A program made the position numbers and the translations under genes. The notes under the pieces were generated by a model. It was not told the origin of the DNA and searched no databases. It saw only the letters and a list, made by a program, of their open reading frames with translations. This document shows, one piece after another, positions 2,957 through 6,500 of a stretch of 20,167 nt of DNA (the first letter of the stretch is position 1; each line of letters starts with the position of its first letter). The DNA comes from Microcoleus vaginatus DQ-U2 (GTDB lineage: Bacteria; Cyanobacteriota; Cyanobacteriia; Cyanobacteriales; Microcoleaceae), in the NCBI GenBank assembly GCA_040004055.1, contig JAMPKT010000123.1:1-20167 (forward strand). Reading direction: 5' to 3'.

Positions 2957-3169
2957 ATGGGACGAATTAGGCTGCGAGTTCGAGAATTTGCTCAAGAGAA
3001 GGGTTGGAATCTGACAGAAGTCTCCAACAGAACAGGTATTCCATATACCACGATCATTACCTATGCCAATTCTCCTGGCATGGCTACCGTTGACTACACA
3101 GCTTTGGACAAGATGGCTCGTGCCTTCGATATTGCGATCGAAGATTTAGTTGAGATTTTGGAACAGTAA
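2957..3169 (+). CDS. XRE/Cro-C1-type helix-turn-helix transcriptional regulator (70 aa)
   Basis: RLRVREFAQEKGWNLTEVSNRTGIPYTTIITYAN followed by ...LDKMARAFDIAIEDLVE is a typical HTH_XRE layout. Confidence 0.8.
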   Translation: MGRIRLRVREFAQEKGWNLTEVSNRTGIPYTTIITYANSPGMATVDYTALDKMARAFDIAIEDLVEILEQ

Positions 3170-3378: not shown

Positions 3379-3480
3379 ACAAACTGATTTGTCGCTCTTT
3401 GCAGTAAAAAAATATGGATATTGGAATTTTCCGGCTGTAGACTAGAGTCAGGAGTTTTTCAGTCTGCCGGAGTTATATCA

Positions 3481-3972
3481 ATGCCAATTAATCGGCTGTC
3501 TCAAATTGAAGAAAACTTGGAATTGCTGCAAGAGCAATTAGGGGGCAAGGAGAATGCTCTAATTTTAGCAGCGCCAGAAGAAGAGATCCGAATTAACCAG
3601 CAAATCCGAAAGCTACGCAAGAAGATTCGGGAGCAGGAAGAGGAGTATTGGCAGGTTGTCGCTCAGCAAACGAAAACGGTGGAAATTCCCGAACATGAGG
3701 CTGAGATTATTGTTGCCGAGATTGTCAAAGAAGTTGGGCAATTTGAAGTGCAGGGACAGTATTCAGATGAAGTGCTTCAGATTTTGCAGGAGATTCGGGA
3801 CAAGCTAAACCAACCGGGAGCGACAGCGGCTGCGAAACTTAAAGGCGTAATCTCAAGCATTCCGCCGTTTGTGGGAATTTCCTACGAGGCTGAATTGGAT
3901 ACAGAGAATATTTTCCACCGGCATTTTCCAACGTTTCGGAAATGGGCTAAGGTATTAGCAAAAAAGTCATAG
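3481..3972 (+). CDS. Coiled-coil protein with a C-terminal hydrophobic-hairpin module (163 aa); candidate effector or effector-adaptor of the downstream NB-ARC protein
   Basis: The ATG at 3481 has GGAG 8 nt upstream, so the TTG at 3421 in the track is less likely to be the start. The N-terminus (INRLSQIEENLELLQEQL...IRKLRKKIREQEEEYW) is charged and has heptad character. The tail PGATAAAKLKGVISSIPPFVGISYEAELDTENIF resembles, from memory, the EACC1-type module described in NTPase conflict systems. That resemblance is unverified. Confidence 0.65.
   Translation: MPINRLSQIEENLELLQEQLGGKENALILAAPEEEIRINQQIRKLRKKIREQEEEYWQVVAQQTKTVEIPEHEAEIIVAEIVKEVGQFEVQGQYSDEVLQILQEIRDKLNQPGATAAAKLKGVISSIPPFVGISYEAELDTENIFHRHFPTFRKWAKVLAKKS
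3960..3966 (+). promoter_or_regulatory. Candidate -1 frameshift / homopolymer slippage site A_AAA_AAG joining ORF 3481-3972 to the NB-ARC frame
   Basis: The zero-frame codons are GCA AAA AAG TCA TAG. A -1 slip continues with GTC ATA GAC..., which is exactly the frame of the 4077 ORF. The potential stem 3971-3979 agacctgga / 3995-4003 tccaggttt starts 4 nt downstream. Confidence 0.4.
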
Positions 3973-4076
3973 ACCTGGAGCGAAAAACACCCAATCCAGG
4001 TTTCACAAGTTTTTACCAACTTTACGATATTCCCTCCGAACTCGGTTCAAAAAACTTTGTCGGGCGGGATGAGGAA

Positions 4077-6500
4077 ATGCAGCAGTTGCACGCATTGTTG
4101 CAGGATGGAAGCCGTGTTGCCATTGCCGCTGCGTCGGGAATGGGCGGCATCGGCAAGACAGAATTGGCATGGCAGTATGCAAACTTTCACCGCGAACACA
4201 ATACCTATCCAGCAGGGATTTGGTGGCTGTTTGTCCGGGACAACGATTTAGCACCGCAGGTGTTGCAGAAAGCGCTGCGAATGGGAATTCAGCCGCCGGA
4301 TACTCTCGACAATCTGGAGGAACGGTTGCAGTTTTGCTACCAAGAGTGGGCAAAAAAAACCTCTGGCAATGCTCTGCTGGTATTGGATGATGTCAGCGAT
4401 TACCGCGCGGTGCAGCCGTTGCTGCCTAGAAATCCCCGCTTTAAAGTGTTGCTGACAGCGCGACAAATTGTGCCGCCGCCTGTGGGGTGTTTGCCGTTAA
4501 AAGTGTTGAAACCAGAGGCGGCGCTAAACTTGCTGCGGCTGACGGCTGGGGATTTGCCGGGAAACGGGCTGGGACGGATTGATGCCCAGCTTGAAGATGC
4601 TCAAGCCCTTTGCCAGTGGTTAGATTATTTGCCTTTGGGTATCGAACTGGTGGGGCGCTATCTGCGGCGCAAGCGGGCGCTGTCCTTGGCAGAAATGCTG
4701 GAACGGTTGCAGAGTCAGCGATTGGAGGCGCGGGCATTGCAGGAGGCGGAAGCTGGGATGACGGCTAGGCGCGGAGTGGTGGCAGCTTTTGAGTTGAGTT
4801 GGGCGGAGTTGAAACCTCCGGCGCGGACGCTGGGGTGTCTGCTGAGCGTATTTGCTCAGGCTCCGATTCCTTGGGAGTTGGTAGCTGAGTGTTTGCCGGA
4901 TTGGGATGAGGAGGAGTTGGAGGATTGTCGGGATTACGAACTGCTGGAACAGAGTTTGCTGTCGCTGGTGGAGGATGAAAGCTCAGATCCGGCTCAATCT
5001 GGGCTGGTGCAGCCACGCTATCAACTTCATGCTTTGATTCGGGAGTTTTTTGCAGTCAAATTGCAGGAACGCGCCGATGCTGAGGATTTGCGGAGAAGTT
5101 TTGCTCTGGCGTTGACAGTGGTGGCAAAGACGATTCCGCAGACTGTGACGCTGGAGGTGCAGCAACGGGTGAAGGAGGCGCTGCCCCATTTGGAGGTGGT
5201 GGCGGAGCAATGGTCGCATTTGCTGGAAGATAGCACTGATGCTATGGGGTCTTTCACGGTCTTAGCGTGGGTTGCCGAGGGGCAGAGTTTGTGGGCAGAG
5301 GCCGAAAAGTGGTTCAAAGCTTGCCTCCAGATGACAGAGAAATGCTGCGGAGCTGACCATCCCAATACGGCAATGAGTTTGAACAATCTGGCATTGCTTT
5401 ATTATGCAATGGGTCGCTACCCGAAAGCGGAACCCTTGTATGTGCGATCGCTCGCGATTAGAGAGCAGAAGCTAGGAGCAGAACATCCCTATACGGCAAT
5501 GAGTTTGAACAATCTGGCAGCGCTTTACTGTGCAATGGGACGCTACCCGGAGGCAGAACCTTTGTATGTGCGATCGCTCTCTATCTATGAGCAGCAGCTA
5601 GGAGCAGAACATCCCGATACGGCATTGAGTTTGAACAATCTGGCAGAGCTTTACAAAGCAATGGGACGCTACGCGGAGGCGGAACCCTTGTATGTGCGAT
5701 CGCTCGCGATCAGAGAGCAGAAGCTAGGAGCAGAACATCCCTATACGGCAAGTAGTTTGAACAATCTGGCAGAGCTGTACTATGGAATGAGACGCTACCA
5801 GGAGGCGGAACCTTTGTATGTGCGATCGCTCTCTATCAACGAGCTGCTGTTCGGAGCCGACCATCCTCATACGGCAACGAGTTTGAATAATCTGGCAGAG
5901 CTGTACCGTGCAATGGGAAGCTACCCGGAAGCGGAACGCTTGTATGTGCGATCGCTCTCTATCTATGAGCAGCAGCTCGGAGCCGACCATCCCAATACGG
6001 CAAAGAGTTTGAACAATCTGGCAGGGCTATACGAGTCAATGGGACGCTACCCGGAAGCAGAACCCTTGTATGTGCGATCGCTCTCTATCAACGAGCAGCA
6101 GCTCGGAGCCGACCATCCTCATACGGCAACGAGTTTGAACAATCTGGCAAATCTGTACCATGCAATGGGACGCTACCCCGAGGCGGAACCCTTGCTAGTG
6201 CGATCGCTCACGATTAACGAGCAGCAGTTCGGAGCCGACCATCCCACTACGGCAATGAGTTTGAACAATCTGGCATGGCTCTACTATGCAATGGGTCGCT
6301 ACCCGGAGGCAGAACCGTTTTTTCTGGGAGCATTAGAAATCTTGTTTAACCAATTGGGGAAGAATCATCCCAACACCCAAAGAGTTTGTAGGAATTTCAT
6401 TAATTTTCTCCAGCAGGCCATATCAACTGGTCAAGACTCGAAACTTTCCCAGCATCCAACAACGCAAGCAATGCTTAAGCGAGTTCGGGAGACGGAGTAG
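4077..6500 (+). CDS. NB-ARC (STAND, NLR-like) ATPase with C-terminal KLC-type TPR repeats. Coordinates run from the first ATG; the frame is open from 3951.
   Basis: Motifs present: P-loop GMGGIGKTELA (4137-4169), Walker B ALLVLDDV, KVLLTAR (RNBS-B-like) and LDYLPLGIELVG (GLPL-like). These are followed by 8 x 42-aa repeats G-A-D/E-HP-x-TA-x-SLNNLA-x-LY-x-AMGRYPEAEPLYVRSL plus a degenerate cap. The conserved pre-P-loop segment NFVGRDEE lies upstream of the ATG, so the true N-terminus is probably further 5'. Confidence 0.9.
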   Translation: MQQLHALLQDGSRVAIAAASGMGGIGKTELAWQYANFHREHNTYPAGIWWLFVRDNDLAPQVLQKALRMGIQPPDTLDNLEERLQFCYQEWAKKTSGNALLVLDDVSDYRAVQPLLPRNPRFKVLLTARQIVPPPVGCLPLKVLKPEAALNLLRLTAGDLPGNGLGRIDAQLEDAQALCQWLDYLPLGIELVGRYLRRKRALSLAEMLERLQSQRLEARALQEAEAGMTARRGVVAAFELSWAELKPPARTLGCLLSVFAQAPIPWELVAECLPDWDEEELEDCRDYELLEQSLLSLVEDESSDPAQSGLVQPRYQLHALIREFFAVKLQERADAEDLRRSFALALTVVAKTIPQTVTLEVQQRVKEALPHLEVVAEQWSHLLEDSTDAMGSFTVLAWVAEGQSLWAEAEKWFKACLQMTEKCCGADHPNTAMSLNNLALLYYAMGRYPKAEPLYVRSLAIREQKLGAEHPYTAMSLNNLAALYCAMGRYPEAEPLYVRSLSIYEQQLGAEHPDTALSLNNLAELYKAMGRYAEAEPLYVRSLAIREQKLGAEHPYTASSLNNLAELYYGMRRYQEAEPLYVRSLSINELLFGADHPHTATSLNNLAELYRAMGSYPEAERLYVRSLSIYEQQLGADHPNTAKSLNNLAGLYESMGRYPEAEPLYVRSLSINEQQLGADHPHTATSLNNLANLYHAMGRYPEAEPLLVRSLTINEQQFGADHPTTAMSLNNLAWLYYAMGRYPEAEPFFLGALEILFNQLGKNHPNTQRVCRNFINFLQQAISTGQDSKLSQHPTTQAMLKRVRETE
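5349..6356 (+). repeat. Tandem array of eight 126-bp units encoding the TPR repeats
   Basis: Unit starts are at 5349, 5475, 5601, 5727, 5853, 5979, 6105 and 6231, an exact 126-bp period. Each unit contains gtgcgatcgctc, which is a HIP1 site. Confidence 0.95.

Follow-up and report, generated by a model that had tools for sequence, protein, structure and literature searches.

A conserved A_AAA_AAG heptamer probably couples a helical N-terminal domain to STAND NTPases and other modules by -1 frameshifting in cyanobacteria

We analysed a stretch of 20,167 nucleotides (nt) from the cyanobacterium Microcoleus vaginatus DQ-U2 (GenBank assembly GCA_040004055.1, contig JAMPKT010000123.1, positions 1 to 20,167 of the forward strand), which in its full length is referred to here as the window. 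Between positions 3481 and 6500 the window carries an open reading frame (ORF) for a 163-amino-acid (aa) all-helical protein, here called N-dom, followed in the -1 frame by an ORF for an NB-ARC NTPase with a TPR array. Judged from the comparison with its relatives, this region is very probably a single recoded gene, in which programmed -1 ribosomal frameshifting of the dnaX/IS3 type at an A_AAA_AAG heptamer would yield both the short N-dom protein and a 1006-aa fusion. The comparison demonstrates nucleotide-level selection on the site, on its register and on the open -1 frame across a large cyanobacterial family; that the slip is ribosomal, and that both products accumulate, we infer. The elements of the junction are these:

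3481..3972, plus strand: 0-frame ORF for the 163-aa all-helical N-dom protein, the predicted short termination product
3948..3950, plus strand: TAA, stop of the -1 frame and 5' limit for a shift
3949..3952, plus strand: AAGG, a weak Shine-Dalgarno (SD)-like motif 7 nt 5' of the heptamer, possible upstream stimulator
3960..3966, plus strand: A_AAA_AAG slippery heptamer, in the 0-frame register (GCA AAA AAG)
3966..4076, plus strand: 37 codons of the -1 frame without ATG, GTG or TTG (VIDLERKTPNPGFTSFYQLYDIPSELGSKNFVGRDEE), comprising a linker and the start of the STAND module
3970..3972, plus strand: TAG, the 0-frame stop, one codon 3' of the heptamer
3971..4003, plus strand: hairpin with a 9-bp stem (AGACCUGGA/UCCAGGUUU) and a 15-nt loop, candidate downstream stimulator
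4056..4076, plus strand: FVGRDEE, the first positions of the AAA_16/STAND profile, 5' of the first ATG
4077..6500, plus strand: the 807-aa ORF that a gene caller would predict, with the NB-ARC NTPase and a TPR_10/TPR_12 array

The N-dom ORF, which begins with a Met used at the equivalent position by all homologues, ends in GCA AAA AAG TCA TAG (3958-3972). The -1 frame opens at 3951, 9 nt 5' of the heptamer, directly after a TAA whose position is kept in all the Microcoleus orthologues. In the ORF listing its first ATG, GTG or TTG is the ATG at 4077, and the only near-cognate codons before it are ATT 3954, ATA 3969, CTG 3975 and ATT 4029. After a -1 slip on the heptamer the next codon would be GTC 3966 and the product 162 + 844 = 1006 aa long. 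The -1 frame encodes the peptide TPNPGFTSFYQLYDIPSELGSK ahead of ATG 4077, and the stretch before this ATG reaches into the NTPase module: the AAA_16 match begins at profile position 1 with residue 35 of the extended frame (FVGRDEE, residues 35-41) and position 3 of the NB-ARC profile falls on residue 41, both starts lying 5' of Met 4077. With an NB-ARC match of 52.5 bits (Pfam curated cut-off 23.5), a Walker A motif and C-terminal repeats (TPR_12, E = 1.8e-135), the protein is a STAND NTPase of the NB-ARC clade with a TPR sensor. A preliminary description of this DNA had already located the ORF end, the heptamer, the frame opening, the near-cognate codons, the AAGG and the stem, and had noted the lack of a canonical start before 4077, a trans-frame length of about 1006 aa and the FVGR-type element as a conserved STAND N-terminus; all of this is borne out by the sequence, the ORF listing and the profile matches.

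Conservation of the slippery site and of the frame behind it

In the window, AAAAAAG occurs 8 times where 11.7 occurrences are expected, and the fold of the 101 nt around the junction has a z-score of -1.19. Taken one by one, the features of the single sequence do not exceed chance; the significance of the heptamer derives from its position, its register and its conservation across relatives, and not from the window alone. At least 396 homologues of N-dom were found at E <= 0.001, with 223 clusters among the representatives at 50% identity. The homologues among the 120 matches listed are 162-167 aa long, exceeding this length only by N-terminal over-extension, and none of them covers the linker. 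All 120 close homologue clusters listed have the same C-terminus, xKK[S/P] followed by the stop. Among 75 full-length stand-alone representatives with less than 50% mutual identity, the exact C-terminal KK is present in 33 and a KK within the last four residues in 42, the background frequency of the KK dipeptide in the rest of those proteins being 0.34%.

A genome scan with the single protein found the same locus in at least five Microcoleus genomes, including the single-record assembly CP031705. The junction is identical throughout the Microcoleus genomes and metagenome contigs (GCAAAAAAGTC[A/C]TAG), and five Microcoleus loci share their first start codon, an ATG 37 codons 3' of the heptamer. 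The DUF4058 and UbiD flanks align in order in the ten orthologous loci checked for synteny, and all 14 aligned orthologous loci, from different assemblies and technologies, have an unvarying A6 tract.

A metagenome scan that used the closer 17-sequence alignment as query contributed 48 further loci (40-85% identity), and distant genomes were obtained by exact-protein look-ups, which for the N-dom protein of the window itself gave no record; the set compared comprises 54 loci with 40-95% protein identity. The heptamer is A_AAA_AAG in 50 of them and A_AAA_AAA, within an A7 or A9 run, in the other four. Its register is identical in all 54, 0-6 nt 5' of the 0-frame stop and down to 40% protein identity, and in every one the -1 frame is open across the heptamer and usually continues for 400-890 codons. 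Assembled genomes with the same arrangement include Stenomitos frigidus (CP170648), Phormidium sp. CLA17 and Anabaena sp. UHCC 0451. With two ORFs kept and the heptamer in register throughout, this comparison of orthologous and paralogous loci supports the programmed -1 frameshift at A_AAA_AAG that the preliminary description had put forward as its principal explanation.

Synonymous sites should be randomised at 40-50% protein identity. The codon triple NNA AAA AAG for x-K-K is found in 14 of 17 lineages, with 0.068 expected per lineage from the codon usage of the same genes, probabilities that overstate the independence of the lineages, and whose product overstates significance, because the lineages share ancestry; the three lineages without the triple have longer A runs. 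The heptamer is invariant though the flanking codons differ, and elsewhere in the same genes KK is encoded by AAA-AAG in only 3 of 22 cases. Because the triple is fixed at the junction while KK elsewhere rarely uses AAA-AAG, these codons indicate that selection on the site acts on the nucleotides and not on Lys-Lys.

The frame 3' of the heptamer encodes different modules in different lineages: NB-ARC with TPR, NACHT, nSTAND3/4 and NPHP3_N/AAA_16 NTPases, and further VMAP-C, GUN4 and TPR proteins and one product without a Pfam match. Other lineages have FVGRE, FTGRE or WVGRD, the equivalent of FVGRDEE, in their -1 products. A Met within Walker A (GMPGIGKSE, GDPGMGKSS) is the first canonical start of the -1 frame in L026 and in the L035/37/40/41 group, and in the Anabaena locus (L055) this start is a TTG at codon 183, where the recorded gene (L055:5044) begins, without a P-loop. 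The downstream STAND genes are called inconsistently in public records: besides the call of L055, that in L054 starts at an ATT (4462) and overlaps the ORF of N-dom, and in L056 1.8 kb of open -1 frame (4499-6360) carry no gene call.

Codons 13-37 of the stretch before the ATG show, in the clade of the window, 7 synonymous and 4 non-synonymous changes when read in the -1 frame, against ratios of 0:10 and 2:8 in the other frames, and nucleotide identity is 96-98% over the 120 nt 3' of the heptamer, compared with 87-91% in the flanks. The corresponding count for codons 37-137 was set aside as unreliable, the sequences lacking gap alignment. This points to protein-level purifying selection on the start-less -1 codons, and the coding-type pattern supports the earlier proposal that the stretch ahead of ATG 4077 is translated. 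The near-cognate starts, in turn, are not conserved: CTG 3975 is CGG in L001 and L006, and ATA 3969 is CTA in all the other orthologues.

The 3' ends of N-dom and the heptamers are near-identical within three pairs of loci (L020/L022, L027/L032 and L030/L031), and the sequences then diverge totally within 0-40 nt. Recombination or an exchange of modules, at the frameshift site or just behind it, would fit this abrupt divergence.

Candidate stimulators, counter-evidence and other explanations

One representative from each of 19 lineages was compared with control windows from the same genes, for pairing with the anti-SD sequence at -22 to -3 and for folding at +1 to +45. Both signals are enriched family-wide (Fisher combined p 1.3e-4 for SD-like pairing and 9e-6 for hairpins). 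The two tend to compensate for one another: L035 combines a strong SD-like motif (-12.6 kcal/mol) with a weak hairpin, and L023, L049 and L051 show the reverse. The hairpins of the different lineages are unrelated in sequence, begin 3-7 nt 3' of the heptamer and are often far stronger than that of the window (-20.6 kcal/mol in L054, -19.6 in L023 and -17.1 in L056). The A9 lineages have neither stimulator, which fits with the longer run compensating for them, perhaps via transcriptional slippage. In the window, the hairpin is the predicted minimum free energy structure (-11.6 kcal/mol, 4-nt spacer, one G-U pair, 15-nt loop), and among the 14 orthologues 98% of the cells of the stem alignment are paired and 7 of the 9 pairs are invariant. 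The 9-bp stem of the preliminary description is the one predicted here; as a stimulator it is plausible but unproven. The hairpin at 3971-4003 was also considered as an intrinsic terminator or attenuator, and the terminator scan found no such site there. An Rfam search at the junction matched no family.

Besides the shared ancestry of the lineages, several observations weigh against the frameshift. The hairpin of the window is statistically ordinary (19th percentile of the same-gene control windows); within the Microcoleus clade its stem shows neither covariation nor compensatory change, a comparison that says little as 7 of the 9 pairs never vary, and one pair is broken in two orthologues. 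The AAGG is present at 3949-3952 as first described, and its duplex with the anti-SD sequence is likewise ordinary (-5.4 kcal/mol, 32nd percentile of the same-gene controls); both the stem and the AAGG are weaker evidence than had been implied. Five loci of one lineage (L031, L034, L042, L044 and L052) keep the heptamer despite an apparent toxin-antitoxin insertion before the NB-ARC gene. In L031, the one locus of the five in which the ORFs were read, the heptamer is separated from the NB-ARC gene by two small ORFs (4100-4700), one of them ParE/RelE-like by eye only; the -1 frame stops after 32 codons, and the NB-ARC ORF takes its ATG from the inserted DNA and is truncated at 314 aa, adjoining an unrelated gene. 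The same 32-codon -1 stop is found in the other four. N-dom can thus persist uncoupled from the sensor. Two loci of a sister subfamily, L060 and L059, use ordinary separate starts. Finally, ATG 4077 is preceded by a GAGG, though at a spacing of only 2 nt, and by a promoter-like match at 4002-4031, which is at chance level (2 found against 2.8 expected); because of these two elements an additional product lacking N-dom, made by internal initiation at this ATG, is possible.

The signals near ATG 4077, the ordinary starts of the sister loci (a GTATGA overlap in L060, a separate ATG in L059) and the persistence of N-dom where the toxin-antitoxin insertion separates the NB-ARC gene, together with the two genes that gene callers annotate, are what speaks for two ordinary, separately translated genes. 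The NB-ARC/TPR protein would then start at ATG 4077 or at a near-cognate codon (CTG 3975, ATT 4029), and KK would be kept for protein reasons. We regard this as unlikely, since no near-cognate start is conserved 5' of the conserved peptide and since the protein would lack FVGRDEE, which belongs to the STAND profile; other lineages have their first start in or beyond the P-loop. Nor would separate translation account for the fixed synonymous codon choice of the heptamer or for the -1-frame coding pattern of the codons before the ATG, and the promoter-like match occurs at the frequency expected by chance. Marginally less likely still is slippage of RNA polymerase on the A run, which would add one A to some of the mRNAs and so produce a single-frame fusion. 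A poly-A recoding pattern has been described for Thermus dnaX and for Mg-chelatase genes (PMC3711429), and in the present family polymerase slippage is favoured by the A9 run of three lineages (L019, L028/L036 and L055), which are without the SD-like and hairpin stimulators, and by the A7 run of one (L048). The window has exactly A6 followed by G, as do 50 of the 54 loci, and A9 is found in only 3 of about 17 lineages. Runs prone to such slippage consist of 8-9 or more A or T, and A6 is too short for efficient slippage by the polymerase. For slippage of the polymerase it would not matter that the register of A_AAA_AAG is strict, that the G is conserved and that hairpins follow downstream, but these are the features that define tandem slippage by the ribosome.

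The preliminary description had further considered that the split might be non-functional, caused by an A6/A7 homopolymer sequencing error or by a genuine, recent inactivating frameshift that left a pseudogene, or that the tract might be a phase-variable ON/OFF switch. Homopolymers are indeed error-prone, and a few database proteins read through the junction in frame (P0174, P0133), which could be A7 variants or errors. These explanations are nevertheless highly improbable. A sequencing error is excluded by the identical A6 in the 14 orthologous loci, single-record assemblies included, and in independent assemblies such as CP031705 and CP170648. A phase-variable tract is not what the 14 orthologous loci suggest, as they show no polymorphism in tract length, nor do the 120 homologue clusters listed, which all share the same C-terminus. 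Against a genuinely split gene, both ORFs are intact down to 40% identity, and the nucleotide conservation of the slippery codons and the purifying selection on the start-less -1 codons contradict it.

The N-dom family and the surroundings of the locus

The AlphaFold2 model of N-dom, built from a 72-sequence alignment, is all-helical with seven helices (predicted local distance difference test, pLDDT, 86.3; predicted template-modelling score, pTM, 0.75). A loop that is modelled with lower confidence, and the residues around it, hold the most conserved motif (AKLK...PPF..SYEAELDTE). A Foldseek search of the model against the PDB found nothing significant (best E = 0.39, template-modelling (TM) scores 0.3-0.4), and a profile search of the PDB sequences with N-dom gave no match. 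For the window protein, neither Pfam nor NCBIfam gave a match above the curated cut-offs, and PADLOC gave no match either; among the Pfam families EAD1-EAD11 none matches it, and EAD9 gives sub-threshold matches in 3 of 72 relatives (best E = 0.0029).

N-dom also occurs at the N-terminus of in-frame fusions, with nSTAND1 (P0189, 1169 aa), AAA_16 + TPR (P0245, 1315 aa), TIR (P0268), GUN4 (P0193), a periplasmic binding protein (PBP; P0220) and TPR (P0179). KK is absent from the domain boundary in five of these six proteins, which ties the motif to the split arrangement and not to the fold of the protein. P0174, from a truncated contig, reads ...ALKKVVGIAP...FVGREAEL...GIAGVGKSE in a single frame and resembles the expected trans-frame product. 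N-dom with its recoding site stands ahead of at least seven unrelated module types, and this small all-alpha domain is fused or frameshift-coupled to STAND, VMAP-C, GUN4, TPR, TIR and PBP modules. N-dom may behave like an effector-associated adaptor domain, yet it is not assigned to any EAD family. EADs are N-terminal all-alpha domains of NTP-dependent conflict systems in multicellular bacteria, for which homotypic coupling has been proposed (Kaur, Burroughs, Iyer, Aravind 2020, PMC7159879). What N-dom has in common with them is to be a small, non-enzymatic, all-alpha N-terminal domain on VMAP-C, STAND, GUN4 and TIR proteins of multicellular cyanobacteria, with copies in adjacent genes; it differs in its length of about 160 aa and in that no Pfam EAD model reaches threshold. 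The word 'frameshift' is absent from PMC7159879, and coupling by recoding is not described there.

The sister subfamily of N-dom is homologous over its full length (hhalign E = 7e-52) and has no terminal KK. Four of its loci (L058:4005-4056, L061:4008-4059, L062:4005-4056 and L063:4005-4056) end in CGC/AAC CCY NNN TAG, with a GC-rich hairpin of about -19 to -24 kcal/mol directly 3' of the stop, in which, with only four sequences to compare, 3 of 10 pairs carry compensatory changes. The -1 frame runs for 467-870 codons into STAND/NB-ARC proteins in three of these four loci, and in L058 its first start comes 161 codons in, past the P-loop. Possibly this is a second, non-canonical -1 recoding site, perhaps with tRNA-Pro slipping on C_CCY. 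The sister subfamily appears in this way to reach the same end by a non-canonical site (CGC CCY NAG UAG with the covarying GC-rich hairpin), which, if true, would mean selection for recoding itself and not for one particular slippery sequence. Of the two sister loci with ordinary starts, L060 has a GTATGA stop/start overlap (3990-4010) that gives the NB-ARC protein its own ATG, and L059 has a separate ATG 10 nt past the stop (3975-3995) that leads into a WD40 protein, the recorded call of which starts 93 codons too late. In the non-frameshifted L060, the first helix of the NB-ARC protein aligns weakly to the first helix of N-dom (hhalign probability 69%; EAD9 E = 0.018).

Further features of the locus in the window are as follows:

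3469..3472, plus strand: GGAG, an SD-like motif seen in the sequence 8 nt 5' of the ATG of the N-dom ORF
4137..4160, plus strand: Walker A motif (P-loop) GMGGIGKT, seen in the sequence inside the NB-ARC match
5348..6316, plus strand: tandem TPR repeat array with a unit of 126 bp (42 aa), 7.7 copies, 85% match

The orthologous ORFs have 767-890 codons, which suggests that the number of repeats varies in the presumed sensor domain. A second heptamer, A_AAA_AAC at 4049-4055, lies in the register of the NB-ARC frame (TCA AAA AAC of GSKNFVGR) and is kept in all the Microcoleus orthologues; a -1 slip there would lead to a TGA after five codons, and the heptamer may be due to chance. Directly 5' of N-dom, the ORF at 2957-3169 encodes a 70-aa helix-turn-helix (HTH) protein of the Cro/C1 type (HTH_26, E = 4.5e-8). 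The unit containing this HTH gene (233 bp) is tandemly repeated in orthologous loci, with 5 copies in L002 (2543-3697), and its number differs between strains. The surroundings in the window are those of chromosomal housekeeping genes (ABC transporter, DUF4058, UbiD, NYN-domain proteins and an amino-acid permease), and the window also holds genes of the kind that make up an ABC uptake system (a PBP, two permeases and an ATPase).

Proposed mechanism, known parallels and meaning

In the mechanism that we propose, ribosomes would initiate at ATG 3481 and make the helical, 163-aa N-dom. Most of them would pass GCA AAA AAG (3958-3966) in frame, stop at TAG 3970 and release free N-dom, and a minority would slip one base back, perhaps with two tRNA-Lys re-pairing in tandem from A_AAA_AAG onto AAA_AAA. 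Since the stop codon directly adjoins the heptamer in many lineages (A_AAA_AAG_UAA), the slip may alternatively be made by the P-site tRNA-Lys beside the nearby stop, during stop decoding. The hairpin 4 nt 3' of the heptamer, and perhaps the weak AAGG upstream, would help. Shifted ribosomes would read from GTC 3966 onward and make the 1006-aa protein of N-dom, linker, NB-ARC and TPR. In E. coli, the decoding of AAG by tRNA-Lys(UUU) alone is the condition for a high efficiency of A_AAA_AAG.

The OrfA/OrfAB of the IS3 family (IS911, IS150, IS3; PMC5009743) come closest to this layout, in which the 0-frame product is short and the -1 fusion would be long. Shared with them are A_AAA_AAG, a 0-frame stop soon after it, a downstream frame without a start of its own, the (here predicted) fusion of a small helical N-terminal protein to a large C-terminal module, and short and long products with a common N-terminus; the upstream SD-like element and the downstream structure, which are stimulators in IS3 elements, have candidate counterparts here. 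Unlike these elements, the present locus is no mobile element: it is syntenic between DUF4058 and UbiD in Microcoleus, and its downstream module is an NB-ARC/TPR STAND NTPase. No transposase domains or inverted repeats turned up in the Pfam scans of the two proteins, which were not searches aimed at them. E. coli dnaX (tau/gamma) has the same heptamer and the same order of SD-like motif, heptamer and hairpin a few nt downstream (PMC3711429). In dnaX, however, the shifted ribosome terminates almost at once and makes the short product, whereas here the shifted product would be the long one, and the candidate stimulators of the window are much weaker than those of dnaX. Phage tail chaperones G/GT (mentioned in PMC13581612) and viral gag/gag-pol follow a shared logic, in which an abundant short form and a rare, C-terminally extended form are made in a fixed ratio from one mRNA; their heptamers, proteins and genomic context differ. 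Like the -1 frameshifts of chlD/bchD (Mg-chelatase), csoS2, copA and cdd (PMC3711429, PMC9227772), this one would concern a cellular, non-mobile gene annotated as two ORFs, with an A-rich site and with fused homologues elsewhere; it differs from them in the gene family and in that its site and the N-terminal domain move together as a cassette.

Cyanobacterial STAND genes are absent from the main text of the recoding surveys PMC3711429 (GeneTack clusters) and PMC5009743 (a 2016 review), and a 2026 survey of STAND receptors (PMC13581612) mentions frameshifting only for phage tail chaperones. We found no prior description of frameshifting in cyanobacterial STAND/NB-ARC genes in the literature covered, which lies mostly outside subscription journals, an absence that is no proof. 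The signal itself is classical; what is unusual is that the site travels with an N-terminal domain ahead of many unrelated modules. To our knowledge, few chromosomal, non-mobile bacterial genes use programmed -1 frameshifting.

If the frameshift operates as proposed, it would add to these genes a large recoded family of filamentous cyanobacteria, comprising at least 223 clusters at 50% identity, and the first case that we have found in STAND/NLR-like conflict or immunity genes. For annotation, it means that the downstream sensors are called with truncated N-termini, some of them without the P-loop, or are not called at all, and because of this surveys of domain architecture miss their true N-terminal domain. 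Because N-dom fronts modules of conflict systems (STAND NTPases, VMAP-C, GUN4, TPR, TIR), the frameshift may set the ratio of a free adaptor- or effector-like protein to a rarer sensor carrying the identical domain, and this ratio could serve homotypic recruitment or inhibition upon oligomerisation of the NTPase. More speculatively, and with a chance that we put somewhat below even, N-dom and its recoding signal would constitute a portable 'adaptor-and-frameshift' cassette of cyanobacterial NLR-like conflict systems, with a hard-wired stoichiometry for homotypic recruitment, nucleated assembly or auto-inhibition that can be likened to the CARD-only or ASC-type logic of animal inflammasomes. 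Should the two products be made as proposed, the ratio of free N-dom to domain-tagged sensor would be set at translation, and a synonymous change in the heptamer or the insertion of a single base would lock the gene in a short-only or a fusion-only state.

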